Below are positions 5,439 to 61,882 of a stretch of 64,000 bases of DNA, in pieces. The position numbers and the translations under genes were made by a program. The DNA comes from Phyllobates terribilis (lineage: Eukaryota): assembly GCF_046119375.1 (NCBI RefSeq), contig NW_027362771.1, positions 418,996,001 to 419,060,000 on the forward strand, in the 5' to 3' direction. How positions within the stretch are numbered: position 1 is the first letter of the stretch; each line of letters starts with the position of its first letter. The notes beneath the pieces are model-generated. The model searched no databases. It saw only the letters and a list, made by a program, of their open reading frames with translations, and was not told the DNA's origin.

Positions 5439-5447
5439 TTCCCCCCT
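5439..5447 (-). promoter_or_regulatory. Polypurine tract AGGGGGGAA
   Basis: Directly abuts the TG of the 3' LTR on the minus strand. Confidence 0.9.
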
Positions 5448-11332: not shown

Positions 11333-11336
11333 AAGT

Positions 11337-37202: not shown

Positions 37203-37243
37203 CTCCCGACGCGTTTCTTAGCCTTAGCTCGTCATCAGGGGAA
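37203..37243 (-). ncRNA. Minimal hammerhead ribozyme motif (inverted copy)
   Basis: Reverse complement of the motif at 39378-39416. Confidence 0.65.
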
Positions 37244-37411
37244 AAGGAGAGAAGACATGCGGTATGCACGCTGCCCAAAATCGCGCAGCTCATTCACCAG
37301 ACAGCGCCATCTGACACTTTGATAAGTCCTCTTTTAAATCCTGGTCGCGCTATGTTCGCGATCGTGTCACTTCCGGTTCCGGTCAACTGACATCCGGTAT
37401 GTGGAACGCAG

Positions 37412-38560
37412 ATTGAGGGTGGCGAAAACATTTTGCTATGGGTTCGATATATTGATGATGTCCTAGTTTTGTGGAAAGGGGACAAAACATCTTTTGGAAA
37501 CCTTGTGGAAAGGCTGAATTACAATGACCTTAACCTACATTTCACTTTTGAGTTTGGCCCCCATGAGTTGCCCTTCCTTGACATTTTGATACGGATAGGA
37601 AGGGATGGAGAGATAGGGACTAGTACATATAGGAAAACGACTGCCTCAAATTCTTTCCTCAGGTGGGAAAGCAACCATCCAGTCCCCCTTAAGAGGGGCA
37701 TACCGAAGGGGCAATTCATGAGGGTCCGGAGGAACTGTTCGGACGATGCCATCTTTAGAGCCCAGGCTACTGACCTCTGCAAAAGGTTCTATGAGAGGGG
37801 TTATCCAAAGAAGGTAATAGCTGAGGCCGATGAGGGGACTTTGGCCAGGGACCGCTCCTCCCTGTTACACCCATCTCCAAATTTGGATAAGGATAATACT
37901 TTCTGCAGACTTATCACTACATTCACCAACCAGTCATATACGGTTCGTAGGATACTACAAAAACATTGGCCAATTTTATTAATGGACGAGGACATTGGTG
38001 ACGTGGTCGACTCTAGACCCATGATAACCTACAAAAAGGGCAGATCCCTTAGGGACAGATTGGTCCACAGTCACTATATGGGCCATATGGGGAACAAATG
38101 GTTGAAAAGTTCCACAATTGGTTGTTTTAGGTGCAGTGGATGCGTATCATGTAAAGTTATCACGCAAGGAAAAGACTTCACAAGCAATGTCACCGGGAAA
38201 ACATTTGTTGTCAAACATTTCATTAACTGTAGATCCAAGGGAATTATCTATATGGCCAAATGTGTCTGTGGAATGGAATATGTGGGGAAAACAAGGAGGG
38301 AATTGAGGAGAAGAGTGGGGGAACATCAAAGGGATATTGTCCTGAAAAGAGACACCCCCCTGGCGAAACATGTGAATAACGTACACCCGTACAGCAGGGA
38401 TACAATACGATTTATGGGAATTGATAAAGTCATGGCCCCACCAAGAGGGGGCGACTGGGACAAACTGATTCTGCAAAGAGAGACGAAGTGGATCTTTAGA
38501 CTGCGTACAATGGCTCCTCACGGCCTCAATGAGCAGTTGTCCTATAGGTCATTCCTATAA
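37412..38560 (+). pseudogene. 5'-truncated copy of the PLE RT/GIY-YIG ORF
   Basis: Starts just upstream of WVRYIDD; matches the C-terminal half of the 780-aa ORF except for rare substitutions (EADEG vs EAYEG). Confidence 0.9.
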
Positions 38561-39377
38561 GTGCAGGGTGAACTAGGGAGAGGAGTGTAGGGACAGCCGT
38601 CGAGGAGTGGGGGCGCCATCTGCGCAGGTCTTTAGGGTGCCAACCTCCACTGTAAGGTAGGGTGACTTTGTTAGCTACTTAATAGGGCTTTTTATAGGTC
38701 CCCTGGCCCCCTACATTTATGTTTCTCTCTCTCTCCTTTTCTGTGATTTGCGGTCCCTCCTAGTTCCCCTCATGGGTCCCCTCATATTCCTTCTTATATT
38801 TTTTCATACCTCCCCTTTTTTTCATAATTTCATTTTCATCTCCATATTTTTTATCTTCATTACCCTATTTGGGTTTCAAGTGCGCTCTTGGGCTCGGCCG
38901 TGGCACCCACTGTGCGGTTTTGACCTATGAAGTATCTCCAGCTCCTGAACCACTGGGGCAGAACAGACGCGGTTAGTATATACCGCCGCATATATGGTAT
39001 GTTCCTGGATGAGTGTCAGCTACTGTTTTGTCAGGATACTCGCCCTGGTTTGGGGTATTTGTGGATGGGAGGGCTTCTTGGCACCATCCAACACAAGATG
39101 TCAGTTGGCTACCTTGTGTGCCCCTTAATCGTCGCTCCGTAGTGTGCGGTTTCTTCCTTGTATGTGATGCGCACACCGGAAGTGACGCTTGCGTGTCACA
39201 GCCGGCATCTGCGTTCCACATACCGGATGTCAGTTGACCGGAACCGGAAGTGACACGATCGCGAACATAGCACGACCAGGATTTAAAAGAGGACTTATCA
39301 AAGTGTCAGATGGCGCTGTCTGGTGAATGAGCTGCGCGATTTTGGGCAGCGTGCATACCGCATGTCTTCTCTCCTTT

Positions 39378-39416
39378 TCCCCTGATGACGAGCTAAGGCT
39401 AAGAAACGCGTCGGGA
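39378..39416 (+). ncRNA. Minimal hammerhead ribozyme motif in PLE 3' region / pseudo-LTR
   Basis: TCCC-CTGATGA-cg AGC taag GCT aa-GAAA-CGCG-TC-GGGA. Palindromic ACGCGT stem III as in dimeric PLE hammerheads; stem II imperfect. Confidence 0.65.
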
Positions 39417-39931
39417 GCGGTATTTTGTGATGGGCTGGTGACCTTATGAGTTTTGGTCTGCCCCCATCATATGGAGCTACTCTGAAGTCTGAGAGCGTGA
39501 ACGGATATCAAAACTGGTGAGGATGTTCCATTTCTATATATAGTAAGGTTAAATGGTCACCATTGATAGGGCTAACGTTTCCATGTTCTCACATATTTGA
39601 GGCACAACCAGTTGGTATAGTGTACCGCAGGCTCCATTTTTTCTTATTGCCATTTTTCCCTTGGTTGTGTCAGAGATATAATATGCTTATATGACATATA
39701 TCTTTATCTTTGGAAGCAACAATATATGGAAGTTTTTTGGCTATTGTATATCACAGACAGTTCATCTGTGTGTTTTTATGTCCTTGTATTTTGCACATAT
39801 TTTATCCTATGGTAATAAATGTTAAGTTTTAAGTTTCTATAACACTACACCTGCTTGCATCTACATTTATTTTCGTGTAGTTATTTCTAAAATCCCCGCT
39901 GCTGTATCTTGATAATTGAATAATAAGTGGT

Positions 39932-40704
39932 ATGGCTGGATTTCTGTCAGTAGGTATAGACACCAGCCAGTGGGCCACCGAGGCCAAAGAGGTCTTTTCT
40001 GAGCGCACTTTTGCCCAAAAAAATACACTCCCACTTTTTCGGCCGCTTTTAGAGAATCAACTAAAATTTATAAACAGCAGATTACATCCTGGTGGGAGGT
40101 ACAAACACTTGAGAATTACCTAAGGGCAGGCATCGTCCCGAGGAACCTCCGGATTACTTTGTTCCCTTCATTTCGGTACAAGAGTCAGACCCTGCTGAGT
40201 CTCTGGGAAAAGGAGGCGACCGCGAGTTCTTTAAGATTTATGAAACTGCTTCTAGATGAGGAGAGGATTACATTAGCAGCTTTGAATGAATCATTGAGAA
40301 CACAAGTGGAATTAACCAAAAAATTTTCCTTGGAACCTGAATTTAATGCTAAGGAAACGCTACTTCAGAACACAATAGAAAGATTTCAATATCATCTGAA
40401 GGAACGGAAGCATAAATTTTTTATTAAAGATTTACAAGAGTTCAAGGAAAATAAGGCTTATAATTTTCTCTCTAATAGGAGTCCAAGATATCCGGACACA
40501 GACATTTCGTCCACTGACACTGATCTCTCTGAGTCAGAGGTTAGATCCAAATCACATCGTGGTAGACAGAGGGGAAGAGGGGGCGGTAGGATTCGTGGCA
40601 GAAATAATAGCAATAGGAGATCCCCCCTTAGGACTCATTTTTTAGAGGAGGGTTATCCACTACGCAACCGCCTCAATCTGAGCAATCCAGCACCGACATT
40701 ATGA
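39932..40704 (+). CDS. PLE upstream ORF (~257 aa if one frameshift at the A7 run 40017-40023 is corrected), coiled-coil with R/G-rich tail
   Basis: MAGFLSVG...FAQ joins KYTPTF...SWWEVQTLENYL...LFPSFRYKSQ in the -1 frame. Tail RGRQRGRGGGRIRGR. Stop overlaps the ORF2 start (ATGA). Confidence 0.65.
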
Positions 40705-43043
40705 ATCCCCAAATCATAAACCTATCCTCGAGGAGCCTCACTTCCTTAGAACTGGAGGTCTTGGATAGGGGTCTGACTTTTGTGCCGACAACAGACTACA
40801 ATTTTTTTGAGGTTATAAAGGATGTAAACTTATTTGTGCGCAAGTTGAAGTGGCGCAAGCACTTCATTAAGATTGATAAACAGGCATGCGCAGAACTGGG
40901 GGTCCGTGAAGAACTCCTACCTGATATTAGAACCCTTTTTCACCTTGGCGATGCTGATCCTAACCTTGAGGGTAATAGTCCATTCACCAATTTGAAACTG
41001 AAGAGCACTAAAATGCCACCCCCACAGAGTGATTTGAGTCCCATTGATGTATTTCTGAACATGGTGACTAATGACCTGAGAGACCTGGAGAATGATTCCA
41101 GACGCTTTAGACACAATTTCACTCGTTGTGAGATGCAGGCACTGAGATCACTGGAAAATGATCAACACATTACCATAAAACCTTCGGATAAAGGAGGTAA
41201 CGTGGTGATCATGGATACCAGTGACTATCACTTGATGTGCAGTGTAATACTAAACGTCAAGGAGTGTTATAGCACATTAAATGCGGACCCCACGAGTAGG
41301 TTTTCTCAAGAACTGGAGGAACTGGCAAATGAGGCTATGAGGGATGGTATTTTAAACAAACAGGAGAGAGACTTTATCTGTCCAGTCCATCCAGTTATGT
41401 CCACCTTTTATAGTTTACCAAAGGTACATAAGGGCCTGAATCCACTGAAAGGATGCCCCATAATATCCGGGACAAACAATCTAACCCAAAATCTGGGAAT
41501 ATATTTGGAGAAGGTACTTAAACCCTTTGTCTTAAGTTTGAACTCATTTATCGGTGACACCAACGACCTGCTCCGCAAACTAGAAGGTATGACAGTTGAT
41601 AAAGACGTGACTCTAGCTAGCATAGATGTCGAGTCATTATACTCCTCAATACCCCATGATAGTGGTCTGGAGGCGATACGCTTTTTCCTTCTTGGGAGAG
41701 GCAAACAATTTGAGCGACACAATCATTTCGTGATGGAGGCCCTGCAGTTCTGCTTGACAAAAAATGTGTTCCTCTTCGGTGGGAAATACTTCCACCAACT
41801 CAGGGGTACTGCGATGGGGAGTCCATGTGCCCCATCGTATGCCAATTTATACCTGGGTTGGTGGGAGGAAACCGTGGTGTTTGGGGACATCCCCATTGAG
41901 GGTGGCGAAAACATTTTGCTATGGGTTCGATATATTGATGATGTCCTAGTTTTGTGGAAAGGGGACAAAACATCTTTTGGAAACCTTGTGGAAAGGCTGA
42001 ATTACAATGACCTTAACCTACATTTCACTTTTGAGTTTGGCCCCCATGAGTTGCCCTTCCTTGACATTTTGATACGGATAGGAAGGGATGGAGAGATAGG
42101 GACTAGTACATATAGGAAAACGACTGCCTCAAATTCTTTCCTCAGGTGGGAAAGCAACCATCCAGTCCCCCTTAAGAGGGGCATACCGAAGGGGCAATTC
42201 ATGAGGGTCCGGAGGAACTGTTCGGACGATGCCATCTTTAGAGCCCAGGCTACTGACCTCTGCAAAAGGTTCTATGAGAGGGGTTATCCAAAGAAGGTAA
42301 TAGCTGAGGCCTATGAGGGGACTTTGGCCAGGGACCGCTCCTCCCTGTTACACCCATCTCCAAATTTGGATAAGGATAATACTTTCTGCAGACTTATCAC
42401 TACATTCACCAACCAGTCATATACGGTTCGTAGGATACTACAAAAACATTGGCCAATTTTATTAATGGACGAGGACATTGGTGACGTGGTCGACTCTAGA
42501 CCCATGATAACCTACAAAAAGGGCAGATCCCTTAGGGACAGATTGGTCCACAGTCACTATATGGGCCATATGGGGAACAAATGGTTGAAAAGTTCCACAA
42601 TTGGTTGTTTTAGGTGCAGTGGATGCGTATCATGTAAAGTTATCACGCAAGGAAAAGACTTCACAAGCAATGTCACCGGGAAAACATTTGTTGTCAAACA
42701 TTTCATTAACTGTAGATCCAAGGGAATTATCTATATGGCCAAATGTGTCTGTGGAATGGAATATGTGGGGAAAACAAGGAGGGAATTGAGGAGAAGAGTG
42801 GGGGAACATCAAAGGGATATTGTCCTGAAAAGAGACACCCCCCTGGCGAAACATGTGAATAACGTACACCCGTACAGCAGGGATACAATACGATTTATGG
42901 GAATTGATAAAGTCATGGCCCCACCAAGAGGGGGCGACTGGGACAAACTGATTCTGCAAAGAGAGACGAAGTGGATCTTTAGACTGCGTACAATGGCTCC
43001 TCACGGCCTCAATGAGCAGTTGTCCTATAGGTCATTCCTATAA
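40701..43043 (+). CDS. Penelope-like RT + GIY-YIG endonuclease (Neptune-like Cys linker), intact
   Basis: 780 aa: KPSDKGGNVV, SIDVESLYSSI, GTAMGSPCAPSYANL, YIDD, CFRCSGCVSC linker, IIYMAKCVCGMEYVGKT...R..GEH...H...ETKW...GLN. Confidence 0.96.
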   Translation: MNPQIINLSSRSLTSLELEVLDRGLTFVPTTDYNFFEVIKDVNLFVRKLKWRKHFIKIDKQACAELGVREELLPDIRTLFHLGDADPNLEGNSPFTNLKLKSTKMPPPQSDLSPIDVFLNMVTNDLRDLENDSRRFRHNFTRCEMQALRSLENDQHITIKPSDKGGNVVIMDTSDYHLMCSVILNVKECYSTLNADPTSRFSQELEELANEAMRDGILNKQERDFICPVHPVMSTFYSLPKVHKGLNPLKGCPIISGTNNLTQNLGIYLEKVLKPFVLSLNSFIGDTNDLLRKLEGMTVDKDVTLASIDVESLYSSIPHDSGLEAIRFFLLGRGKQFERHNHFVMEALQFCLTKNVFLFGGKYFHQLRGTAMGSPCAPSYANLYLGWWEETVVFGDIPIEGGENILLWVRYIDDVLVLWKGDKTSFGNLVERLNYNDLNLHFTFEFGPHELPFLDILIRIGRDGEIGTSTYRKTTASNSFLRWESNHPVPLKRGIPKGQFMRVRRNCSDDAIFRAQATDLCKRFYERGYPKKVIAEAYEGTLARDRSSLLHPSPNLDKDNTFCRLITTFTNQSYTVRRILQKHWPILLMDEDIGDVVDSRPMITYKKGRSLRDRLVHSHYMGHMGNKWLKSSTIGCFRCSGCVSCKVITQGKDFTSNVTGKTFVVKHFINCRSKGIIYMAKCVCGMEYVGKTRRELRRRVGEHQRDIVLKRDTPLAKHVNNVHPYSRDTIRFMGIDKVMAPPRGGDWDKLILQRETKWIFRLRTMAPHGLNEQLSYRSFL

Positions 43044-43859
43044 GTGCAGGGTGAACTAGGGAGAGGAGTGTAGGGACAGCCGTCGAGGAGTGGGGGCGCC
43101 ATCTGCGCAGGTCTTTAGGGTGCCAACCTCCACTGTAAGGTAGGGTGACTTTGTTAGCTACTTAATAGGGCTTTTTATAGGTCCCCTGGCCCCCTACATT
43201 TATGTTTCTCTCTCTCTCCTTTTCTGTGATTTGCGGTCCCTCCTAGTTCCCCTCATGGGTCCCCTCATATTCCTTCTTATATTTTTTCATACCTCCCCTT
43301 TTTTTCATAATTTCATTTTCATCTCCATATTTTTTATCTTCATTACCCTATTTGGGTTTCAAGTGCGCTCTTGGGCTCGGCCGTGGCACCCACTGTGCGG
43401 TTTTGACCTATGAAGTATCTCCAGCTCCTGAACCACTGGGGCAGAACAGACGCGGTTAGTATATACCGCCGCATATATGGTATGTTCCTGGATGAGTGTC
43501 AGCTACTGTTTGGTCTGGATACTCGCCCTGGTTTGGGGTATTTGTGGATGGGAGGGCTTCTTGGAACCATCCAACACAAGATGTCAGTTGGCTACCTTGT
43601 GTGCCCCTTAATCGTCGCTCCGTAGTGTGCGGTTTCTTCCTTGTATGTGATGCGCACACCGGAAGTGACGCTTGCGTGTCACAGCCGGCATCTGCGTTCC
43701 ACATACCGGATGTCAGTTGACCGGAACCGGAAGTGACACGATCGCGAACATAGCGCGACCAGGATTTAAAAGAGGACTTATCAAAGTGTCAGATGGCGCT
43801 GTCTGGTGAATGAGCTGCGCGATTTTGGGCAGCGTGCATACCGCATGTCTTCTCTCCTT

Positions 43860-43898
43860 TTCCCCTGATGACGAGCTAAGGCTAAGAAACGCGTCGGG
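43860..43898 (+). ncRNA. Minimal hammerhead ribozyme motif (full-length copy)
   Basis: Same sequence as 39378-39416. Confidence 0.65.
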
Positions 43899-45155
43899 AG
43901 CGGTATTTTGTGATGGGCTGGTGACCTTATGAGTTTTGGTCTGCCCCCATCATATGGAGCTACTCTGAAGTCTGAGAGCGTGAACGGATATCAAAACTGG
44001 TGAGGATGTTCCATTTCTATATATAGTAAGGTTAAATGGTCACCATTGATAGGGCTAACGTTTCCATGTTCTCACATATTTGAGGCACAACCAGTTGGTA
44101 TAGTGTACCGCAGGCTCCATTTTTTCTTATTGCCATTTTTCCCTTGGTTGTGTCAGAGATATAATATGCTTATATGACATATATCTTTATCTTTGGAAGC
44201 AACAATATATGGAAGTTTTTTGGCTATTGTATATCACAGACAGTTCATCTGTGTGTTTTTATGTCCTTGTATTTTGCACATATTTTATCCTATGGTAATA
44301 AATGTTAAGTTTTAAGTTTCTATAACACTACACCTGCTTGCATCTATATTATGTACAGGGATAAACACTGTACTGAACACATCTGGACCTGCCTACAGGA
44401 CCTCACATATTATATATGGGGCCATATAGTAGAATCTGATGTGCTGTAGGTTCAGGTGTAATCAGTCTGGGTCCTGTATTGTGAGGTCTGTGGCCTCTGC
44501 TGGGGCTCAGTGTGATTTATTGCACCAGAATGAACTTTCCACACTGACAGGACGACCCTAATCTGCATCGAAGTTCAGACTCCTGCAATAACTTACACGT
44601 AGCCCCTCTGACCTGACAATATAGAATCCTGGGTGAGGAGATGAGCAGCGTCCTGCTGCCCCCTCACTGCAGACCTTCTGACCACATATTTATCCACGGT
44701 GGTCTCTGATCCACAGGCTCCTCTCCGGCACTAAATCAGCTCCAGGCGCCCTGTGTCATCAAAGCAGCAGACGCAGCCACGTAGTGTGCAGTGCAGGGAG
44801 CGTGTCTGCATCTCTGCGATGTGGCAAGCACAGCTGCTGAACAAAGGTACAGTGCGGTTCCCCGTATTTTTCGGACCACAAGAAGCACTTTTTTCCCCCC
44901 AAACTTGGGAGGAAAATGGGGGGGTGCGTCTTATGGTCTGATCAAAAACAGTTGCATACGTGATAGTTGTGGTGGCAGCAGCAGAAGAGGTGAGATGCTG
45001 CGGGCCAGTGTCTAGCTAGGGAGTGGTGAGCGGCACTACTTTCCGGTGTGCGCGGCCATCTTCCTGAAGCTGTGATCTACAGGAAAATAGCCGCCCAAGC
45101 CGGCGCATGTGTGGCGCCCCTGCTACGCATGTGTGCCACAGATCCTAGAGGGGTG

Positions 45156-47791
45156 TGTAGCACCCCGAGGGCTCGGCTGCTACAGGGGTATTGCACCTCA
45201 AACCAGAGGTGTGATATTCCACTCCCGGGTAAGGATGGAGTGTGGACCAGGACTCGTTAGGCTGCATGTGTAGCACCCCGAGGGCTCGGCTGCTACAGGT
45301 GTATTGCGCCTCAAACCAGAGGTGTGATATTCCACTCCCGGGTAAGGATGGAGTGTGGACCAGGACTCAGTAGGCTGCATGCACCACACACACCCCATTT
45401 CCGAGGGACAGCTCAACGGTGCTCCCACTAGACAGAAGTGCAGGCACGACAGCATCTGTCCCTGGCTGGAGTGGGGAGGGGAAAGTACACCCAGTGGTGT
45501 AGGAGCAGATAGGGGTGGGTCTCTGGGCATAGGTAGGAGCCCATCGGTTGCTAGTCACCTGGGCTCGGGTGTTAGAAGGAGGTATATAAGGTGGGCACCA
45601 TCTTAGAGTAGTGAGTTCAGTCAGGAGGAGAAAAGGAGAGGAGCTCAGCCAGAGAGGGCTGACAGGGAGCTGTGGCTCAGTCTGGGCCCAGCTCCAGAGG
45701 CAGGCCTGGAGTGGAGGCCAGAAACAGCAGAAAGAGAGAGAAGAAAGAACAGAAAGGAAAGTAAGAAAGGAACTGGAACATAGGAGAAAGGAAGCAAGGA
45801 ACACAGAGAAAGGCCCAGAGACACGAAGACAGAAGGAACCCCATATGCCCAGGAGATACAGGGTGAAGGGTTGGCAGAACAGGGTACCGGAACCCAAATT
45901 GGTGGAGGCAACAGATTCCTCAGCCAAAGACCGGAGGTTGTTACCACATCTTGGTGCGACCCCTCACTACATCCACCAGGAAGGCATACCATATAGGGTC
46001 AGGGACGCAGAGATCAGCGTGCCCAGAGAAGGCCCGAGGGAGCTGGACAAAGGTGGGTCACTGGTGGGGATGGCCAGAGAAAGGAAAGGAAGGGAGCCCT
46101 GTGCCACGCTCTGGAATTGCCTGGGAGTTGGTCGAGTCCCTTGCCTGGTGAACGCAGCATGGCTCAGGCGGTCCCTCATGTGCACAAGTGACCAGAATAA
46201 CAACCGTGAGTAAAGCTTTGGAAACTGCAATTACAAGTCTCTGTGTTTCATCGCCGCACCAGCACCATCAGTACTGGGACACTCACACCGTCACTCCCAT
46301 CATCCACATTAGCTGCCCTGAGGCAATACTTCTCCCGTGGGGAGTTATCCCATACTCGGCTGCGCAAACAACATCAGCCTCAGCGGTCGGCAGCACAGCG
46401 GCGGTCCCCACTGACCGCAATCCACGGGTGGCGTAGTCGGACAATTACAATACCAATAGACTGCCACTGGTTTGACCGCCCTGGGCACGGACCGGGTCAC
46501 CGCCACGGAGAACTACAACCCCCAGCGATCCGGCTCCGGGTATCCCCCTGCACAGCACGGGCCCAGGGGGCGCGTCACATGCACCACACACACCCCATTT
46601 CCGAGGGACAGGTCAACGGTGCTCCCACGAGACAGGAGTGCAGGCACGACAGCATTTGTCCCTGGCTGGAATGGGGAGGGGAAAGTACACCCAGTGGTGT
46701 AGGAGCAGTTAGGGGTGGGTCTCTGGGCATAGGTAGGAGCCCATTGATTGCTAGTCACCTGGGCTGACACATAGAGGGAAGTATATAAGGTGGGCACCAT
46801 ATTAGATCTGAAGTCAGTTCAGTTCAGTCAGGAGTTCAGCCAGAGAGGGCTGACAGGGAGCTGTGGCTCAGTCTGGGCCCAGCTCCAGAGGCAGGCCTGG
46901 AGTGGAGGCCAGAAACAGCAGAAAGAGAGAGGAGAAGGAACGGAAAGGAAAGTTAGAAACAAGGAACTGGAACATAGGAGAAAGGAAGCAAGGAACACAG
47001 AGAAAGGCCCAGAGACGCGAGTAAAGAAGGAACCCCATATGCCCAGGAGATACAGGGTGAAGGGTTGGCAGAGCAGGGTACCGGAACCCAAATTGGTGGA
47101 GGCAACAAATTCCTCAGCCAAAGACCGGAGGTTGTTACCACATCTTGGTGCGACCCCTCACTACATCCACCAGGAAGGCATACCATATAGGGTCAGGGAG
47201 ACCAGAGATAGGTTTCGCCAATAGAAGGCCCGAGGGAGCTGGACAAAGGTGGGTCACTGGTGGGGACGGCCAGAGAAAGGAAAGGAAGGGAGCCCTGTGC
47301 CACACTCTGGAATTGCCTGGGAGTTGGTCGAGTCCCTTGCCTGGTGGACGCAGCACGGCTTGGGCAGTCATCGCCTGCAGGATTGACACGAATAACAACT
47401 GTGAGTAAAGCATTGGAAACTGCAACCGCACGTCTCTGTGTTTCATCGCCGCACCAGCACCATTAGTACTGGGACGCTCACACCATCACTCCCACCATCT
47501 TCCACACTAGCTGCCCTGAGGCAACACTTCTCCCGTGGGGAGTTATTCCATACTCGGCTGCGCAAACTACATCAGCCTCAGCGGTCTGCAGCGCAGCGGC
47601 GGTCCCCACTGACCGCAATCCACGGGTGGCGTAGTCGGACACTTGTTACAACATTAAGACTGCCACTGAATTGACCACCCTGGGCACGGACCGGGTCGCC
47701 GCCACACGGAGACTACAACCCCCAGCGTCCCACCAGAGACCCGGCTCCGGGTAACTCACACACGTGCGTACATGGCCCAGGGGGCGAGTCA
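45156..47791 (+). mobile_element. Middle solo LTR (1323 bp net), TSD GGTG, same family as the CSD element LTR
   Basis: GGTG|TGTAGCACCCCGAGGG...GGCCCAGGGGGCGAGTCA|GGTG; interrupted after 113 bp. Confidence 0.9.
45269..46577 (+). mobile_element. Inner solo LTR (1309 bp), TSD CATG, same family
   Basis: CATG|TGTAGCACCCCGAGGG...GGCCCAGGGGGCGCGTCA|CATG; the host LTR resumes with CACCACACAC. Confidence 0.92.
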
Positions 47792-49428
47792 GGTGCATGA
47801 ACGGATTCCTCCACAAGACGCCCTCACAGCATACACACACCTCCACCTTCCACCTCAGACCACCAGAGGGAGCCCGTTAGGGATAGAAATAGGGAAGGTG
47901 GAGCTAGGCAGAGTAGTTCCTCTGAAGAGTTCCTGCAGTAGAGAAGCCTGAGAGAGGTCAGCCTGCAGTGGAGCTCAGTCCAGAGAGAGCTCAGGTTAGT
48001 GAGCCCAAGGCATGCCGACGCCATAAGAGCGGTGAAGTGCGGCAAGCTGCCGCTAGTGTGTACAGCCTAGTGAGGGCCTCGAGCGAGGCCGAAGGCTAGA
48101 GGAGTGAGTAGCATTGGGGGCAGAGGAGCTGTACAAGCTCACCCCAGAAAACAAATACCGGACACCGGGTCCGCGTCTACAGGGCCGTATATCCCCCTGT
48201 AGAGACAACCGGAGACCCCTGGAAGACTTCAGGTCCCAGGATCACCCAAGAGCTGATACGTAACAGAGCCATGAGTCATGGAGACCCCACAAGCTGGGAG
48301 TGTGTACTCCAAGAGAAGGCCCTACCACAAAGTCAGCCGGTGCAGGACAGAGACAAAGTTAGGCCTAGCTCCAGGCAGGTCAGAAACTTACCACACAAAG
48401 GCAAGAAACAGGAGGCCCTATACCCGCTCACTGGGGAGGATCCTGATATGCACCCTTCACCCTACAGTGCTCCGGGATGTGGCTGAATTTCCATCAGTAA
48501 AAGGTACTGAAGTGACTATTGTGTCTGTCCCTGTTTTTACTCTGGCCCGGCTGGGTCACCTCTGTCCTGCATCCCTGCATCTCATCTCCCCGCTGCCCTG
48601 AGGCCTAGCTCCACCTGTGGGGAGCTATACCATGCAAGCTGCCTTAACACCGGCCTCAGTGGACTGCCGCAGTACTGGTGATCCTCACCAGACACCACAG
48701 GTGGCGTCACGAACTTATATATATAATTATCCACTCCTTTTAAAAGAGAGGCCCAGGGTACGGCCCAGGGAGCCGACTACTGCGACATCCCCAAGATCAG
48801 ACAACAAGGCCCGGGCGCCGAGTCATCCCCATCCCCTAGGCGCGACACATGTGCAGATTTGTAGCATGGGCAGCCATTGCCCTGTAGATCACAGCTTCAG
48901 GAAGATGGCTGGAAAGCCACGCCCACAGCTCTGCCACACCGCTCACCAGCCCCTGCCTGCAGCTCTGCCATGCCGCTCACCGGACCTGGCCCGCAGCTCT
49001 GCCACACCGCTCACCTGCTCCGGTCTGCAGATCTGCCACGCCGCTCATGGGACCTGGCCCACAGCTCTGCTACACCGCTCACCGGACCTGGCCCGCAGCT
49101 CTGCCACGCCGCTCACCGGCCCAAGCCCGCAACTCTGTCACGCCGCTCACAGGCCCCGGTCCACAACCAGACCCCGGGCCCCAGCCGTCTCACCTCTTCT
49201 GCTGCAGCTGCCAGGTTCCTGAGGGAGGGAACAGAGGGCCCATCAATCCTGCTCCACCACCACTGCAACTCCTGGCTGCTGGAGCACCGGCTTCCTGAAG
49301 GACCCTGCCTCCTGTGACCCTCGCTCCACCGCCCCCCAGGTAAGATAACGTACCTATTCAGACTATAAGGCAGGCTCCCATCTTATAAAAGATATTTTTT
49401 TCCTATATTCCACCCCAAAATTACGTTA

Positions 49429-49806: not shown

Positions 49807-50240
49807 TTCTAGTTGACTCATGAGAGCAGGTGTGCAAAGTGCATACTTGTAGTTACATAATAACTGCTGGAACCGGCAGAATCCAACCATGTACTGTATA
49901 TATTATATTAAATTATATGTCTGGCATCTACTTTATTCATTGTCTGTGGAACTGATGGAAATAGCTGAGTGCAGCGCTCAGCAGCTCTATAGATAATGAA
50001 TAGAGAAGAAACAAAACATGCACAATTCTGCTCCATTCTGGACTGCAGAGCCCTGTTCTCAGAATATCTGGGGAGCCCAGTGATCGAATCTCCAGGGATC
50101 AGCAATTATGCACAATCCAATATACCGTACATACACACACATATACATAATATACATACACATATGCCGTACATACACACAAGCACTTATGCCGTACATA
50201 AACACACACATATACCGTACATACACACACATCATACATA

Positions 50241-51458
50241 TGTAGCATCCCGAGGGCTCGGCTGCTACAGGGGTATTGCACCTCAAACCAGAGGTGTGAT
50301 ATTCCACTCCCGGGTAAGGATGGAGTGTGGACCAGGACTCAGTAAGCTGCATGCACCACACACACCCCATTTCCGAGGGACAGCTCAACCGTGCTCCCAC
50401 TAGACAGAAGTGCAGGCACGACAGCATCTGTCCCTGGCTGGAGTGGGGAGGGGAAGGAAAACCCAGTGGTGTAGGAGCAGATAGGGGTGGGTCTCTGGGT
50501 ATAGGTAGGAGCCTATTGGTTGCTAGTCACCTGGGCTCACACATAGAGGGAGGTATATAAGGTGGGCACCATCTTAGAACAGAGTTCAGTTCAGCCAGAG
50601 GAGAAGGACAGAAACAGCAGAGAGAACAGGAACAGAAGAGAAAGGAAACAAGGAACAGAACATTAAGAGAGGCCCAGAGACACGACAGAAGAAGGAACCC
50701 CATAGGCCCAGGAGATTGCGGGTGACGGGTTGGCAGAACAGGGTACCGGATCCCAAATTGGTGGAGGCGACTAATCCTCAGCCAAAGACCGGCGGTCGTG
50801 ACTATATCTTGGTGCGACCCCTCACTATACCTACCAGGAAGGCACACCACATAGGGTCAGGGACGCAGAAATCAGCATACTAAGAGAAGGCCAAAGGCAG
50901 CCAGACAAACGTAGAGTCACTGGTGGGGCACGGCCAGAGAAGGGAAGAGAAGGGAGCCCTGTGCCACGCTCTGGAATTGCCTGTGAGTTGGTCGAGCCCC
51001 TTGCCTGGTGGACGCAGCACGGCTTGGGCAGTCACCGCCGGTGCCGAGGTGACTAGGACCAGTAAAGAACTGTGAGTAAAGCATTGGAAACTGCAACCAC
51101 ACGTCTCTGTGCTTCTTCGCCGCACCAGCACCACCAGTGCTGGGACGCTCGTGCACCATCACTCCCATCATCCGCACTAACTGCCCTGAGGCTATACTTC
51201 TCCCGTGGGGAGTCGTCCCATACTTGGCTGCGCATACAACATCAGCCTCAGTGGTCTGCATCGCAGCAGCGGTCCCCACTGACCGTAATCCACGGGTGGC
51301 GTAGTCGGACAATTATAATACTACTAAGTCTGCCACTGGTTTGACCACCCTGGGTACGGACCGGGTCATCGCCACGGAGACTACAACCCCCAGCGATCCG
51401 GCTCCGGGTATTCCCCGCATACACGTGCAAGCACAACACAGGCCCAGGGGGCGAGTCA
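50241..51458 (+). repeat. 5' LTR of CSD element
   Basis: TGTAGCATCCCGAGGG...GGGGGCGAGTCA, followed by ACTT and the PBS. Confidence 0.95.
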
Positions 51459-51462
51459 ACTT

Positions 51463-51487
51463 TGGCGTAGTCGGCAGGATTCAAACC
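51463..51487 (+). promoter_or_regulatory. tRNA-Ser primer-binding site (extended match)
   Basis: TGGCGTAGTCGGCAGGATTCAAACC; first 19 nt identical to the PBS of the autonomous Gypsy. Confidence 0.92.
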
Positions 51488-51897
51488 AGCCCGCTACCAC
51501 CGGGTACTGCGCGCCTTCAGAGACTGAGATACTTACTGTGGTGAAGTTTTCCCGCCATCCGGAGTCATTTCCCGCCATTGGACGCCATCATGGGTCGTTT
51601 CCCGCCATCTTCATCCGTTTTTCCCGCCCCGGCAGAGCGGACGCCATTATGTGCGCACCAAATGACAGCAGGAAGCCGCCTCCCATTGTGGGCCAGGTCC
51701 CAGAGTGGCGCCAGAGAAGGGGCCCGCCCCCAGCAACTATGAGTGCAGCAATGGAGATGTCCATCAACGTGGGGGGGCTGCCCCTAAAGGTGATTGTCAG
51801 CAGATGCCCCCAAGACCACCCCCCATAGGGGCGGATAGGAAAGAAAACTGTGGGGCCGCGTGCGGCCTGGATCAGTCAGGACACACCACACCCGGAG

Positions 51898-53280
51898 ATG
51901 GAAGGAGCCGCAAACCCCACCAGCACCCTGGCCCACAGCCTGCTGCAGGCCGAACCACCGTGCAGCCTGACGGAGTTGCTGGCGCAGCTGCCCAGAGACC
52001 CGGAGTGTGCGCGAGTAGCGCTAGAAGATCTAAATCGGAGGATGGTCCGGGCGCAGCGAGATGTGTTTGCCGGGTGGAAGGAGGAGTTGGCCCGGCAGCA
52101 CGTAAACCGCCAGCAGGAGACAACACCAGGGCCGGGCAGCACGCCTGCCTCCGAGGGCGGTGAAGGTGGACCGGCAGCTGCGGACGCCGCCGCGGAGGAG
52201 GCCACAGAGACTGAGGCAGGTAACGGGGACGTCATCACCCCAAACCCTGAGGCCACCAGCCGGCCCCCACCTTCCGTTGCGGGACCCGAAGCCCCGGGGA
52301 CCGTACCTGACACCACGCCTCCACCGCCGCCAGCTAGGCCTCAGGCTGCAAGCGTCGCTGTCACGCCCCGCCCCACGCTGTGCCCTTTGAACCCGGGCGC
52401 AGTAAAGAGAGAGACGTCACAGGCCGGGACGCAAGGCCTAGTGCACCCGGGCGCCACTGCCTCACCAGCACCCCCTACCTTGACTGTGCCACTCCCGGGC
52501 ACAACCAGCAGACGACCACCGGCCTGGTCGCAAGGCCGAGTGCCCCCGGGCGCTGCTCCCCGACTGGGGTCCCCTGCCATACCACCGCTGGGCGTGGACC
52601 TGTTTGCCCATCATACTGGTCCGGATGGACTGCTGCTGGAATGGCCGGCTGAACTGACCAGCGGTCAGCCCTGGAAAACCCAGCCCCCGCGCGAGCCTCT
52701 GATACCGGCTCCGGAGCCCGTACAGAACACCCCGCTCCCGCTGGAAGACGCCCAATTTGAGTGGGACCCCACTGGCGAAAATCTAATGGGGTTCCCCCAA
52801 GAAACCCGGGCGGACACAGCCTGCCGCTTGGAGTCCTGCCGTCAGCAGCTGGCGATCTTCGAGAGAGAGCGGCGGCAGAGACGCATCAGGGAGGAGCGAC
52901 TCCAAGCCCGGAGCGCGGAACAAAAGCGGAGGGCCCGCCAGGACTCCCAAGCCATTCGCGGTCCTCGAACCACCGGGACCGTGGTAAAGTTCCAGCTGGA
53001 GCACGGCTGGGGCTTCATTAGATACCCGCAGGCCGCAACCGACGTCTTCGTGACCAGAAGAGACGTTGAGAGCCACCTGCCAGAGGGACATCACGGACGT
53101 GACCTGTACCCTGGTGACGTGGTCACTTACACCCGGCACAAGGGCGCTAAAGGACTGTACGCCCTCCATGTCCACCGCTTGACCGAGGAGGAACTGCGGT
53201 ATCGCCCAGACACTGAGTACCCTGAGGGTCCGGACGGACCTGAAGACTACCCAGTAGAGCAAGGAGGACATCATTATTGA
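51898..53280 (+). CDS. 460-aa protein: helical N-terminus, Pro-rich linker, Arg/Glu-rich coiled coil, C-terminal cold-shock domain (about 52972-53181), acidic tail
   Basis: First in-frame ATG at 51898 (track start 51850 is GTG). TGTVVKF..EHGWGFI (RNP1-like), DVFVT (RNP2-like), LYPGDVVTY...GAKGLYALHV align by eye with CspA TGIVKWFNADKGFGFI...DVFVH...GAKGPAAGNV. Confidence 0.88.
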   Translation: MEGAANPTSTLAHSLLQAEPPCSLTELLAQLPRDPECARVALEDLNRRMVRAQRDVFAGWKEELARQHVNRQQETTPGPGSTPASEGGEGGPAAADAAAEEATETEAGNGDVITPNPEATSRPPPSVAGPEAPGTVPDTTPPPPPARPQAASVAVTPRPTLCPLNPGAVKRETSQAGTQGLVHPGATASPAPPTLTVPLPGTTSRRPPAWSQGRVPPGAAPRLGSPAIPPLGVDLFAHHTGPDGLLLEWPAELTSGQPWKTQPPREPLIPAPEPVQNTPLPLEDAQFEWDPTGENLMGFPQETRADTACRLESCRQQLAIFERERRQRRIREERLQARSAEQKRRARQDSQAIRGPRTTGTVVKFQLEHGWGFIRYPQAATDVFVTRRDVESHLPEGHHGRDLYPGDVVTYTRHKGAKGLYALHVHRLTEEELRYRPDTEYPEGPDGPEDYPVEQGGHHY

Positions 53281-53936
53281 ATAAACGGTAAAATGAACTG
53301 TATATAGTTACCCGTCAGGGTATAAGAACTGTTACTGAATTGGAGTATGGTCCCCGTTGGGACTAATGTGGAGCTGTTCCATGCCAAAGTTGCCATTATA
53401 ACCTTTACCAGGCTGAGGACTGTGAACAGCCATTCCCCCTTACCAACTGGCCGAGGACTGGGAACGGCCAATCCCTTGTAAATAGTTGTGCTTCTTAAAG
53501 CGCCCCCTACTGGTTTTATAAAAGAACTGCAACGTCTACCTCAGGACGAATTAAATGGATTGTTGCACCCTTAAGAGAAAGTGAACACCTGGTCGCGAGT
53601 TGCACAGCGGCCAGAACTCAAGAATGTGTTTTTGAAAAAGAAAAATGTTTCACTTGAAAATGTTTTATATGAAAAGGTTTTATATGCTGCTAGAGTAATA
53701 ATGCAAATGTTTTATGTAATGTTTTATATGCTAAAAGAGTTCCGGTAGTTTTGACCATAGCTAGTGAAAGAAGAATGTTAAAGAAAAGAAAAAGTGTACC
53801 AGTAACGTTAAAAGGGAAAAGTGCCTCCCATAAAGGGATGGGTTAATAGTGTCTTATATGCGAATGCATTCTAAAAATTTTGTATGTTTAAATTGTTTTT
53901 ATTCTTTTCCAGCCCGAGGACGTGCTGTGATTTACC

Positions 53937-53945
53937 AGGGGGGAA
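53937..53945 (+). promoter_or_regulatory. Polypurine tract AGGGGGGAA
   Basis: Abuts the 3' LTR; identical to the PPT of the autonomous Gypsy. Confidence 0.9.
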
Positions 53946-55163
53946 TGTAGCACCCCGAGGGCTCGGCTGCTACAGGGGTATTGCACCTCAAACCAGAGGT
54001 GAGATATTCCACTCCCGGGTAAGGATGGAGTGTGGACCAGGACTCAGTAAGCTGCATGCACCACACACACCCCATTTCCGAGGGACAGCTCAACGGTGCT
54101 CCCACTAGACAGAAGTGCAGGCACGACAGCATCTGTCCCTGGCTGGAGTGGGGAGGGGAAGGAAAACCCAGTGGTGTAGGAGCAGATAGGGGTGGGTCTC
54201 TGGGCATAGGTAGGAGCCCATTGGTTGCTAGTCACCTGGGTTCACACATAGAGGGAGGTATATAAGGTGGGCACCATCTTAGAACAGAGTTCAGTTCAGC
54301 CAGAGGAGAAGGACAGAAACAGCAGAGAGAACAGGAACAGAAGAGAAAGGAAACAAGGAACAGAACATTAAGAGAGGCCCAGAGACACGACAGAAGAAGG
54401 AACCTCATAAGCCCAGGAGATTGCGGGTGACGGGTTGGCAGAACAGGGTACCGGATCCCAAATTGGTGGAGGCGACTAATCCTCAGCCAAAGACCGGCGG
54501 TCGTGACTATATCTCGGTGCGACCCCTTACTACACCTACCAGGAAGGCACACCACATAGGGTCAGGGACGCAGAAATCAGCATACCAAGAGAAGGCCCGA
54601 GGCAGCCGGACAAACGTAGAGTCACTGGTGGGGCACGGCCAGAGAAGGGAAGAGAAGGGAGCCCTGTGCTACGCTCTGGAATTGCCTGGGAGTTGGTCGA
54701 GCCCCTTGCCTGGTGGACGCAGCACGGCTTGGGCAGTCACCGCCGGTGCCGAGGTGACTAGGACCAGTAAAGTACTGTGAGTAAAGCATTGGAAACTGCA
54801 ACCACACGTCTCTGTGCTTCTTCGCCGCACCAGCACCACCAGTGCTGGGACGCTCATGCACCATCACTCCCATCATCCGCACTAACTGCCCTGAGGCTAT
54901 ACTTCTCCCGTGGGGAGTCGTCCCATACTTGGCTGCGCATGCAACATCAGCCTCAGTGGTCTGCATCGCAGCGGTGGTCCCCACTGACCGCAATCCACGG
55001 GTGGCGTAGTCGGTCAATTATAATACTACTAAGTCTGCCACTGGTTTGACCACTCTGGGCACGGACCGGGTCATCGCCACGGAGACTACAACCCCCAGCG
55101 ATCCGGCTCCGGGTATTCCCCGCATACTCGTGCACGCACAACACAGGCCCAGGGGGCGAGTCA
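53946..55163 (+). repeat. 3' LTR of CSD element
   Basis: Direct repeat of 50241-51458. Confidence 0.95.
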
Positions 55164-55234
55164 CATACACACACATATTCCGTACATACACACAAATCAT
55201 ACATACACACACATATATACTGTACATACACATA

Positions 55235-56812
55235 CAGTAGGGAAAATAATTATTTGATCCCTTTCTATTTTTGTAAGTTTGCCCACTGACAAAGACATGA
55301 ACAGTCTATAATTTTAAGGGTAGGTTAATTTTAACATTGAGAGATAGAATATCCAACAAAAAAATAAAGAAAATCACATTGCATAAATTAGATAAATTTA
55401 TTTGCATTTTGCTGTGAGAAATAAGTAGTTGATCCCCTACAAACCATTATGAGTTCTGGCTCCTACAGACCAGTTAGACGCTCCTAATCAACTCGTTACC
55501 TGCATTAAAGACAGCTGCCTTACATAGTCACCTGTATAAAATACTCCTGTCCACAGACTCAATCAGTCAGACTCTAACCTCAACAACATGGGCAAGACCA
55601 AAGAGCTTTCTAAGGATGTCAGGGACAAGATCATTGACCTGCACAAAGTGGGAATGGGCTACAAAACCATAAGTAAGACACTGGATGAGAAGGAGACAAC
55701 TGTTGGTGCAATAGTAAGAAAATGGAAGAAATACAAAATGACTGTCAATCGACATCAATCTGGGGAACCATGCAAAGTCTCACCTCGTGGGGTATCCTTG
55801 ATCATGAGGAAGGTGCGAGAACAGCCTAAAACTACATGGGGGGAAATTGTTAATGATTTCCATGCAGCTAGGACCACAGTCACCAAGAAAACCATTGGTA
55901 ACACATTACGCCTTAAAGGCTTAAAATCCTGCAGTGCCCACAAGGTCCCCCTGCTCAAGAAGGAACATGTGCAGGCCCGTCTGAAGTTTGCCATTGAACA
56001 CCTGGATAATTCTGTGAGTTATTGGAGAAGGTTTTGTGGTCAGATGAGGCAAAAATTGAGCTCTTTGGCATTAACTCAACTCACCATGTTTGGAGGAAGA
56101 AGAAGGAGGAGTACAACCCTAAGAACATCGTCCCAACCGTGAAACATGGTGGGAGAAACATTATACTTTGGGGGTGCTTTTCTGCAAAGGGGACATGACG
56201 ACTGCACCGTATTGAAGGGAAGATGGATGGGGTCATGTATAGCGAGATTTTGGCCACCAACTCTTTCCCTCAGTAAGAGCATTGAAGATGGGTTGTGGCT
56301 GGGTCTTCCAGCAAGACAATGACCCAAAACATACAGCCAAGGCAACAAAGGAGTGACTCAAAAAGAAGCACAGTAAGGTCATGGAGTGGCCTAGCCAGTC
56401 TCCAGACCTTAATCCCATAGAAAACTTATGGAGGGAGTTGAAGCTCCAAGTTGCCAAGCGACAGCCTCAAAATCTTAATGATTTAGAGATGATCTGCAAA
56501 GAGGAGTGGACCAAAATTCCTCCCAACATGTGCGCAAACCTCATCATCAACTACAAAAAATGTCTGACTGCTGTGCTTGCCAACAAGGGTTTTGCCACCA
56601 AGTATTAAGTGTTGTTTGCCAGAGGGATCAAATACTTATTTCTCACTGTAAAATGAAAAAGAAAAATTATCTAATATATCCAATGTGATTTTTTGGGGGA
56701 TATTCTATCTCTCAATGTTAAAATTAACCTACCCTTAAAATTATAGACTGTTTATGTCTTTGTCAGTGGGCAAACTTACAAAAACAGCAAGGGATCAAAT
56801 ACTTATTTCCCT
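55235..56812 (+). mobile_element. Tc1-like DNA transposon, right terminus clipped
   Basis: TA|CAGTAGGGAAAATAATTATTTGATCC with long TIRs; right TIR ends ...GGATCAAATACTTATTTCCCT and fuses to another Tc1 fragment. Confidence 0.9.
55588..56608 (+). pseudogene. Tc1 transposase with frameshifts and stop
   Basis: [16 protein letters not shown]..., [25 protein letters not shown] spread over different frames; TGA at a conserved W. Confidence 0.92.
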
Positions 56813-60110: not shown

Positions 60111-60687
60111 CCTCCAACGAGAGTGATAGTTCGTTATAAATCGTAATTGCTGATTTATTATGCACTATATCAAAATACACCAATCAGCCATACCACTAAA
60201 CATCGATCAGCCATACTACTAAACACCGATCAGCCACACCACTAAACACCAACTTACACTGTTCCTGTTAGAACACTCCTGTTAATTTTTTCTATTTTGC
60301 TGGTCACATGACTTTTTGCCTATTTAATCCAGCTCCGCCCTCCTGGCCTTGCTGGACTTCAGTGTTACATTTACTCTTAAGCTAGCCAGGTGCCTTGTAC
60401 CTTACTCTGTAGTTTGCTTGGTCTTTTGACCACTAGTACTTCTGTTTGTTTGTTCATCTTTGCTCTGCTACAATTTCTGCTAGGAGGTGTCCAACTATAT
60501 CCCAGTCCTTAGTTCTTGTAGGGACCCCTCCCTTATATCTATAGGTCTGCGTTCAGACTAGCCGAGTACTTAGGCGGGTCTGTTCACAAGGAACAGGTCC
60601 CCCGCTGCATCGTAGGGAATCAGCTTAGCCCTATTGTAGGGACAGTTTTCCTATCTTTCCTTAGTGTTTGTAGCAGTTCATAACAGT

Positions 60688-60696
60688 AAGTCCAGC
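60688..60696 (+). promoter_or_regulatory. Self-priming PBS (AAGTCCAGC), complementary to LTR 60351-60359
   Basis: GCTGGACTT lies 30 nt after the start of TATTTAA (60321-60327); no TGG-type tRNA PBS after the LTR. Confidence 0.7.
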
Positions 60697-60739
60697 CCAA
60701 AAAAAAAAACACTCTAAGGAAAGAAATCCTGATTTCAGC

Positions 60740-61882
60740 ATGGTGTCGGTTCAGGAGTTGGCTCAACGCCTGCAGGGACTGTCTTTGGAGGTGGCCGAGC
60801 TCCAGCAACACGTGAGTAGCTGTCCTGGAGCGCATTTTGTCGAACCGAAGGTAGGACTGCCAGATTTTTTTTATGGTAAACGGCAAGATTTTTTTCACTT
60901 TAAAAACGCTTGTTTATTATATTTTCGTTTAAGACCCAGATCCTCGGGGAATGAATCACAGCGCATTGGGTTTATAATGTCACTTTTGCGCAAACAACCA
61001 CAGGGATGGGCCTTTTCTCTACAACCTAATGATCCGTGTTTTAGATCTGTGGAAGATTTTTTTTCTGCTATGGGGTTGTTGTATGATGATCCTGATCGAG
61101 TCTCAACTGCTGAAACTGAATTAAGACGTTTGAAGCAGGGATCAGGTGATGTGGAAAATTATTGTACATACTTCAGAAGATGGTCGGCTGAAGTGGAATG
61201 GAATGACTCAGCATTAAAATGTTTGTTTCTTGATGGTCTAGGTGAAAGGGTTAAGGATCTGCTGATTGCCTTCCCAAAACCTAGAACCTTGCAGGAGGCA
61301 ATGCAATTAGCCATACGTGTGGACAGGAGACTGCGTGCTAGGAGTAATGAAGAGAAATCTACTGCCATGGCTTCTAGTTTTCAGAGGGTCTGTTCTGAGG
61401 GTGGAGAACCGATGGAGATTGGGGCGATGTCACCCCACTCTCAGGAAAAAGACCGCAGGTTTGCTAAAGGATTGTGTTTTTATTGCGGTAAATCTGAGCA
61501 CTTTATTAAGAACTGTGTGCTTCGTTTGAACAAAGAAAAAAAAAAAGAGGTCAGTTACGCCCGCATAGCTTGTTTAAACTCAAAAGGAGTATTTCTTTCT
61601 GGAAGCACCTCATTCCAGGAGGAGTTGATTGAATTTCGGGTATTTGTGGATTGTGGTTCAACACTCAATGTGATTGATGAGGGTTTTTTGGAAAAATGTA
61701 AATTAGAATCCAAACTTTTGTCATCTCCTATTTCTGTGGTTGCTGTTGATGGCTCTCCCTTGAAAGGTATTACTCACAAGGTTTTTGAATTTCCCCTCAC
61801 CATCAATGGTATCCACCAAGAGAATTTGGATTTGGCGGTATTAAATAATTTGCCTGCTCCAGTGGTTTTGGGGTTACCTTAG
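60740..61882 (+). CDS. gag: Gag-protease ORF, ended by a probable TGG-to-TAG nonsense change
   Basis: EPKVGLPDFF, LRRLKQG, EPMEIG, CFYCGKSEHFIKNC, VDCGST; ends VVLGLP* where LPWL is expected (downstream LKLHNPVLDW). Confidence 0.85.
   Translation: MVSVQELAQRLQGLSLEVAELQQHVSSCPGAHFVEPKVGLPDFFYGKRQDFFHFKNACLLYFRLRPRSSGNESQRIGFIMSLLRKQPQGWAFSLQPNDPCFRSVEDFFSAMGLLYDDPDRVSTAETELRRLKQGSGDVENYCTYFRRWSAEVEWNDSALKCLFLDGLGERVKDLLIAFPKPRTLQEAMQLAIRVDRRLRARSNEEKSTAMASSFQRVCSEGGEPMEIGAMSPHSQEKDRRFAKGLCFYCGKSEHFIKNCVLRLNKEKKKEVSYARIACLNSKGVFLSGSTSFQEELIEFRVFVDCGSTLNVIDEGFLEKCKLESKLLSSPISVVAVDGSPLKGITHKVFEFPLTINGIHQENLDLAVLNNLPAPVVLGLP

Follow-up and report, generated by a model that had tools for sequence, protein, structure and literature searches.

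A gag- and pol-less LTR retrotransposon with a cold-shock-domain reading frame in Phyllobates terribilis, probably mobilised by a tRNA-Ser-primed Gypsy clade with which it likely exchanges U5

We analysed a window of 64,000 nucleotides from the genome of Phyllobates terribilis (contig NW_027362771.1, positions 418,996,001 to 419,060,000, forward strand), which contains a long terminal repeat (LTR) retrotransposon, here called element S (50241-55163), and an autonomous Ty3/Gypsy element of subfamily A1 (4472-12303, minus strand). Element S belongs to a high-copy family of passengers that have no gag or pol and carry instead an open reading frame (ORF), the cargo, with a cold-shock domain (CSD) under selection. 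On balance, we consider it likely that this family is copied in trans by a clade of Gypsy elements primed by tRNA-Ser, with which it exchanges the U5 part of its LTR, and that the helper of the lineage to which the window copy belongs is a second autonomous subfamily, A2.

Element S is 4,923 bp long, lies on the plus strand, as do all its features given below, and is flanked by the 4-bp target-site duplication (TSD) CATA (50237-50240 and 55164-55167); a preliminary description of this DNA had ended it at 53960, and it runs on to 55163. The 5' LTR (50241-51458, 1218 nt) and the 3' LTR (53946-55163, delimited by alignment with the 5' LTR and by the TSD) differ by 28 mismatches and one gap, a divergence of 2.3% (0.023). 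The 3' LTR begins with TGTAGCACCCC, where the 5' LTR has one substitution, and both terminate in GGCCCAGGGGGCGAGTCA. A TATA-like box of presumed promoter function (50552-50560, LTR position 312), whose position is kept in other S copies, predicts the U3/R border at about 340 nt into the LTR, and the predicted poly(A) signal AGTAAA (51075-51080, about 380 nt before the LTR end), kept in at least 95% of 94 aligned copies, would place the R/U5 border some 20 nt downstream. From these two positions, U3 would be short, R long and U5 about 360 nt in length (51100-51458), U5 being the module shared, and probably exchanged, with autonomous subfamilies; by these predicted borders, U3 and R together form the portion that the Gypsy lacks, and U5 the portion in common with it. 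After an ACTT spacer follows a 20-nt primer-binding site (PBS; 51463-51482) complementary to tRNA-Ser(AGA/TGA), an assignment based on tRNA-Ser genes called by ARAGORN at 6 of 20 loci fetched from the same genome. Three leader repeats TTCCCGCCAT (51549-51608) and a polypurine tract (PPT) AGGGGGGAA (53937-53945) complete the signals. Pfam detected no gag, reverse transcriptase (RT) or integrase in S, and only the CSD matched. [quoted passage not shown]

The exact junction of LTR end, spacer and PBS occurs 38,102 times in the genome (control 0), and exact PPT junctions occur 26,657 times in S-type and 30,081 times in A-type form, A being the autonomous elements (controls 0). A census of the first 80 of 100 junctions listed in genome order, which come from the initial 20 Mb of a single contig (C1), gave 32 loci with gag-pol, 44 with the cargo ORF and 4 with neither, and none of the 44 cargo-bearing loci held gag or pol remnants. 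To the census we added both window elements and 18 of 20 copies taken from the best matches to the window CSD, the other two being dropped because their 3' part was missing or interrupted. The LTR-pair divergence was 0.003-0.030 in S1, the passenger subfamily of the window copy (22 of 23 rows), 0.003-0.026 in A2 (6 of 9) and 0-0.009 in A1 (22 of 23), and thus the age ranges of S1 and A2 overlap. As for the age comparison proposed in the preliminary description, the window copy of S, at 0.023, lies outside the sampled A1 range, while younger S1 copies (from 0.003) fall within it. Contigs from four runs of one study, presumed to be RNA, covered all 30 bins, but such contigs do not bear on transcription, transcript ends or strand, and no claim made here draws on them. 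Some S copies have identical LTRs, suggesting current activity and hence the need for a living helper. Tandem S arrays with common LTRs (LTR-internal-LTR-internal-LTR) were seen at L039, L040 and G000:C1 31.09-31.10 Mb. At G000:C2 392-399 Mb lies a large segmental repeat array, in which a single A2-type junction recurs about 40 times on the same strand at intervals of roughly 100-400 kb.

The cargo ORF (51649-53280, with a putative start at 51649 placed by alignment) encodes, in this order, a short helical region, a proline-rich linker, a long helix, the CSD and an acidic tail, and in the window copy it is broken by an in-frame stop at 51826-51828; the preliminary observation on the shared signals makes no mention of it. 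The CSD (52972-53175) matched Pfam PF00313 with 31.9 bits (cut-off 27); the N-terminal region gave no Pfam match. A structure model (mean pLDDT 82) showed a five-stranded oligonucleotide-binding (OB) fold that matches bacterial Csp and YB-1 structures, and GWGF and VFV of RNP1/RNP2 are retained. A frame of at least 450 codons including the CSD is kept in 30 of the 44 unselected S copies. Between passenger subfamilies, which are separated by a synonymous divergence (dS) of 0.5-1.5, the ratio of nonsynonymous to synonymous substitution (dN/dS) was 0.06-0.18 for the CSD in all nine pairs, 0.12-0.23 for the part preceding it in seven of nine pairs (two were saturated) and 0.43-0.89 for the proline-rich linker. 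Judged by these ratios, the cargo ORF evolves under purifying selection. Among 1.8 billion representatives, the closest single-domain relatives were uncharacterised proteins under the labels Phyllobates, Ranitomeya, Anomaloglossus and Engystomops; here a word-seeded search gave 2 matches among 155 candidates, and a full HMMER scan reached further. One protein, labelled Anomaloglossus baeobatrachus (P0129), has WRSRQD, the translated PBS of the S/A clade, upstream of a related CSD, suggesting that a second frog genus harbours elements of this type. Another entry, P0008, is a host gene model with a CSD piece fused in front.

The window Gypsy, the partner named in the preliminary description, is an A1 copy with the TSD TTGC. 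Its LTRs (11337-12303 and 4472-5438) differ by 3 mismatches, a divergence of 0.3%, so that it is younger than the window S copy (2.3%). It has an intact gag frame with a zinc knuckle (9915-10895), which gave a weak PNMA-family match under the Pfam cut-off, and an intact pol frame (5803-10011) in the order protease, RT, RNase H and integrase, with no env frame in the element. All the shared signals that had been listed were found: the LTR ends (TGTGGCACCCC and GGCCCAGGGGCGCGTCA in the Gypsy), the ACTT spacer and the first 19 PBS bases, identical in both, the PPT, 4-bp TSDs, the U5 block and the leader repeats (three in S versus five in the Gypsy). These motifs are real, and the likeness goes beyond isolated motifs: the two elements have in common one unbroken block, the last 300 nt of the LTR (73-74% identity), and in addition about 150 nt of the leader (77%), with a local alignment score of 186 versus 27 for the best of 50 shuffles. 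As also described, the U3 regions are dissimilar: the rest of the LTR has an identity of 0.46 against 0.44 in shuffles, a comparison that covers the predicted R in addition to U3.

Comparison of the two LTR parts across elements pointed to another helper. In U3/R, 55 of 63 S rows were measurable and showed 72-89% identity with the window copy, against 47-59% with the nearest among seven helper rows (shuffle 44%), and this region separates passengers from helpers cleanly. In U5, by contrast, a tree of the last 280 nt (96 rows) contained 12 changes between passenger and helper labels, at least 7 of them forced by well-supported branches, and none of the bootstraps gave passengers one origin. Monophyly of the passengers was likewise rejected by the approximately unbiased (AU) test on the 94 rows other than L139 and L104 (p 1.5e-76), although mosaic sequences strain the tree model and the value therefore gives the direction rather than the size of the effect. 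The window passenger sits in a U5 group of 33 rows (support 100/100) composed of 23 passengers, the S1 rows, and 10 helpers, one on a long branch, and the window Gypsy falls outside it. For all 23 S1 rows the best U5 match was an A2 helper (84-97%), with the window Gypsy at 72-80%; the window copy itself scored 90% and 76%, respectively. A2 is a separate RT lineage, at a third-position distance of 0.20-0.26. A targeted search recovered 30 further loci, 28 with gag, and 26 of these 28 were nearer to S than to the window Gypsy in U5 (best 89%). The preliminary description had suggested looking for an autonomous element with closer LTRs; A2 is closer in the tail, but near-identical whole LTRs were not found, S-type U3/R being absent from autonomous elements at 18 variant PPT-junction loci, in the 32 census helpers (compared through seven representative rows and the window copy) and at the 28 gag-bearing loci. 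We consider A2, not the neighbouring A1 copy, the likely helper of the S1 lineage. The proposed helper-satellite pairing was thus borne out at the level of the clade, where the passengers lack gag and pol and the primer, PPT, ends and TSD length are the same, but not for the pair that had been named, given the closer tail and matching ages of A2 and the younger age of A1; the refuting outcome that the preliminary description had set out, another autonomous partner, thus came about in part. Other lineages showed related patterns: U5 of a second passenger group (10 rows) is 85-94% identical to A1-side helpers, and two autonomous elements, L126 and L127, combine an A2-type RT with an A1-side U5, indicating that U5 also moves between helper subfamilies.

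Against the A2 copy L106, S had 82-97% identity per 40-nt window in U5 and 42-65% upstream. In S1/A2 pairs, identity in such windows rises from about 60% to 75-100% right after AGTAAA and drops past the PBS, and six pairs have their left border at one and the same place beside the poly(A) signal, with the right one located at the PBS; in passenger/helper pairs of the second group, the left border is shifted inwards by about 80 nt. Short mosaic passengers with an internal region of about 1.4-1.6 kb were found at L175, L117, L177, L068 and L151; they combine an S LTR with an A2-like leader and a CSD tail, an A LTR and leader with a CSD tail, or an old gag remnant with an S 3' end, and L177 is a short CSD-tail element with a complete A-type LTR. 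Such combinations of helper leader or LTR with cargo tail attest to further exchange between the lineages. The explanation offered earlier, that RT and integrase sites are conserved while promoters diverge, is incomplete, because 94-97% identity of passenger and helper across the whole of U5, together with the interleaved tree, favours exchange of U5 over selection on a few sites.

In retroviral replication, minus-strand strong-stop DNA is the source of both progeny copies of U5. In the mechanism that we propose, S would be transcribed from its own U3 promoter and its RNA packaged together with that of a helper. Minus-strand strong-stop DNA, once started on one of the two RNAs, would copy U5 and then jump to its partner RNA where both have a short stretch in common, around the poly(A) signal, giving a product with passenger U3-R, helper U5 and passenger leader, in both LTRs. 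Strand transfer predicts a product in which one parent supplies U3-R and leader while U5 in both LTRs comes from the other; this pattern matches the one observed, and transfer may have gone either way. The data are better explained by a U5 that was exchanged repeatedly, probably through template switches within common particles, than by conservation alone. As this kind of exchange requires co-packaging, it would be indirect evidence for the relation of helper and passenger. The importance of U5 would lie in its content, namely the right integrase end and two boxes predicted to contact the tRNA. As to the cargo, it would most likely act as a single-strand nucleic-acid chaperone that aids the translation, stability or packaging of the RNA of its own element, which is the weakest step of the scheme.

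Several observations weigh against this interpretation. The borders of U3, R and U5 are predicted from sequence rather than mapped on RNA, and co-packaging and RNA binding by the cargo are presumed. Eighteen of the 23 S1 rows were chosen by likeness to the window copy, the census comes from the first 20 Mb of one contig, and even the closest A2 sequence is just 89-90% identical to the window copy. In the youngest passenger subfamily (29 rows), U5 is of a separate type, with 79-85% identity to the nearest helper; among 42 same-strand spacings measured for one of its U5 motifs, 41 were passenger-sized and none helper-sized, suggesting that a matched U5 is not strictly required for success. One element, L104, has an A-type 5' LTR, an S body and an S-type 3' LTR with the junction inside U5, and these unlike LTRs imply that chimeras also formed at the DNA level or in the assembly. 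As for the cargo, its CSD has Lys and Thr at two stacking positions, in alignment with the Trp and His found there in YB-1, and the selection estimates come from subfamily pairs that are not independent and have dS near saturation.

L104 bears directly on an alternative in which S is a passenger but the shared U5 arose by ectopic recombination or gene conversion between the tens of thousands of genomic copies and was spread by retrotransposition, without any co-packaging. The transcript of such a chimera could yield passengers with a helper U5, and the very high copy density would favour recombination at the DNA level. Nevertheless, an L104-type chimera was present at only 1 of 80 loci, and the fixed borders in six S1/A2 pairs, at the poly(A) signal and the PBS, are those predicted by first-strand transfer. 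Since these borders also coincide with the limits of homology, their position is not decisive, and we regard this alternative as unlikely but deserving of some weight.

Two further explanations appear much less probable. That S descends by deletion from an extinct autonomous element with a CSD accessory ORF, its partnership with A being secondary or incidental, has a parallel in bird retroviruses, which captured CSDs beside their normal genes in the portion of PMC12287698 available, and is in keeping with the age of the passenger U3/R and ORF, a lineage old enough for dS of 0.5-1.5 between subfamilies. However, none of the 44 cargo-bearing census loci had a gag or pol remnant, integrase was found upstream at none of the 18 variant-junction loci with an S-type LTR start, and the copies with identical LTRs show current activity that needs a living helper, leaving this explanation with a small probability, although such an origin, taken by itself, may still apply. 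Slimmer still are the chances that S is a dedicated satellite of the neighbouring Gypsy, with selected RT and integrase sites and drifting promoters. All the listed signals are indeed common to both, other passenger subfamilies match A1-side U5 at 85-94%, and the enzymes of A1 would probably be able to work on every member of the clade, because PBS, PPT and ends are common to it; yet S1 is 72-80% identical to the window Gypsy versus 84-97% to A2, the window S copy (0.023) predates the sampled A1 copies (at most 0.009), and the U5 tree rejects vertical descent alone. This version can be taken as largely refuted already.

Two boxes within U5 are candidates for additional contacts with the primer tRNA. 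A second, same-sense copy of the first 12 PBS bases (51297-51308), about 165 nt upstream of the PBS and complementary to the 3' end of tRNA-Ser, is present in 92 of 96 elements. The other box (51371-51384), part of the U5 block of the preliminary description, is predicted to pair with the 5' end of the primer tRNA-Ser, being complementary to its bases 1-11, or 1-6 and 11-18. The mean duplex energy of this box and the tRNA was -19.4 kcal/mol against -14.3 ± 2.8 kcal/mol in shuffles, 4% of which were as low; in the window copy, the box was outside the best 8 of 324 windows by tRNA pairing. A sister family, C, whose gag is 36-37% identical to that of A and whose PBS matches tRNA-Ser(CGA) after a longer spacer than in S and A, offered a comparison. 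Its U5 carries a copy of its own PBS start at 29 of 30 loci (L179-L208) when variants are counted, 12 of them exact, and at 21 of the 28 loci scored, a box at the site of the A/S box fits the tRNA of family C at 6 of 7 bases. These own-primer versions indicate that both boxes track the primer, and an extended contact with the primer tRNA is our hypothesis, built on this one family comparison. We rejected, in the form tested, a folding switch based on pairing of the U5 box to either the PBS or its internal copy: none of 72 foldable copies gave at least 4 expected pairs, after exclusion of 24 of the 96 elements for lack of exact motifs. The loci L209-L214 are not genes but retrocopies of the 3' half of tRNA-Ser that end in CCA. 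In the window, family C is represented by a solo LTR (45110-48847, plus strand, TSD CATG) with its own PBS copy at 48702-48714; it encloses two nested S-lineage solo LTRs (45156-47791, plus strand), the inner one at 45269-46577 (TSD CATG) inside the outer (TSD GGTG), a triple nest in which all three 4-bp TSDs are intact. A bolder proposal would see S and A as a two-part retrotransposon, with the CSD an accessory for both genomes, the lineages coupled through the swapping of a U5 cassette with three points of grip on the primer tRNA, and the system a part-driver of genome gigantism; the CSD protein may in that case be an RNA chaperone or a shield against host silencing. We hold this proposal to be rather improbable.

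Du et al. in 2010 reportedly described autonomous and non-autonomous LTR elements of soybean in a partnership with LTR swapping. S and A resemble that pair in having passenger and helper subfamilies tied by exchange of LTR sequence, namely of U5 and, in L177, of a whole A-type LTR; they differ in that S resides in a vertebrate, the exchange is confined to the predicted U5 with U3/R unalignable, and the passenger carries a selected protein of non-retroelement type. Large retrotransposon derivatives (LARDs) are longer than about 4 kb and have a non-coding internal region; S, at 4,923 bp, has that length but not the non-coding interior, given its long selected ORF. TRIMs (terminal-repeat retrotransposons in miniature) have fewer than 1000 bp and are non-coding, and Helenus and Ajax are counted among non-autonomous LTR elements, in the part of PMC10886601 available. 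Like both classes as far as they are described there, S has LTRs, a PBS, a PPT, a TSD, no replication enzymes and a probable dependence on a Gypsy-type helper, but at 4.9 kb and protein-coding it is no TRIM; by analogy, it would work like a LARD or a soybean-type passenger apart from its coding interior. Non-autonomous pararetroviruses of grasses have, according to the accessible sections of PMC5491270, homogenised regulatory regions, region-specific recombination and partners that change over time. The S/A partnership, too, appears to be kept by recombining non-coding signals, although the grass elements of that account are integrase-less viruses and S and A are LTR retrotransposons with a swap limited to U5. 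For birds, the available portion of PMC12287698 lists 46 endogenous retroviruses (ERVs) with a captured CSD (PF00313), from several captures and with no function shown; both cases place PF00313 inside an LTR retroelement, but there it was added to a retroviral genome, and in S it is the sole recognisable domain, in tens of thousands of copies. Primer-binding sites that are split or extended, with a second tRNA contact, are known from Drosophila gypsy, Ty3 and Ty1, and the second site of gypsy lies near the RNA 3' end and pairs with the anticodon and T stems (PMC1635307, in the text available). S similarly has predicted tRNA contacts beyond the canonical PBS; unlike the gypsy site of that text, both of its predicted boxes are in U5, one a same-sense PBS copy and the other complementary to the tRNA 5' end. 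Recombination within families during reverse transcription has been reviewed (PMC6894440, in its accessible part). The S family is not described in the available parts of PMC4131045, PMC10886601 and PMC3424704, nor does "cold-shock" occur in the accessible text of the poison-frog transposable element papers covered. In the literature covered, no CSD-carrying Gypsy passenger and no U5-internal PBS copy from a frog is described; Repbase, Dfam, subscription papers and supplements were outside this search and may hold the family.

The present analysis adds the pairing of subfamilies, an exchange limited to U5, a match in age, estimates of selection and U5 boxes that track the primer. Pairs of helper and passenger that exchange LTR sequence are known mainly from plants, and S and A provide a vertebrate case, in which tens of thousands of young copies form a natural record of the sites of RT template switching and of how passengers track their helpers. 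A passenger that has not shrunk but retains, under selection, an RNA-binding domain of host type raises the question of whether this cargo serves the passenger, the helper or the host. With about 27,000 and 30,000 exact junctions, respectively, S and A make up a sizeable share of the recent growth of a 10.6-Gb genome.

Additional features were observed in the two elements and elsewhere in the window. The A leader contains ACTTACCTG at 11263-11255 (minus strand), a perfect splice donor on the antisense strand, and both lineages have an acceptor-like pyrimidine tract plus AG just before the PPT (53897-53912 in S). An RT frame between 700-nt inverted repeats occupies 36711-44350, an element that we take to be DIRS-like by its layout. 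The window also holds a fragment of a long interspersed element (LINE)-type RT (16665-17984), a Tc1 transposase fragment (55540-56142) and an unrelated gag-protease frame with a Ty3-type capsid (60674-61882).

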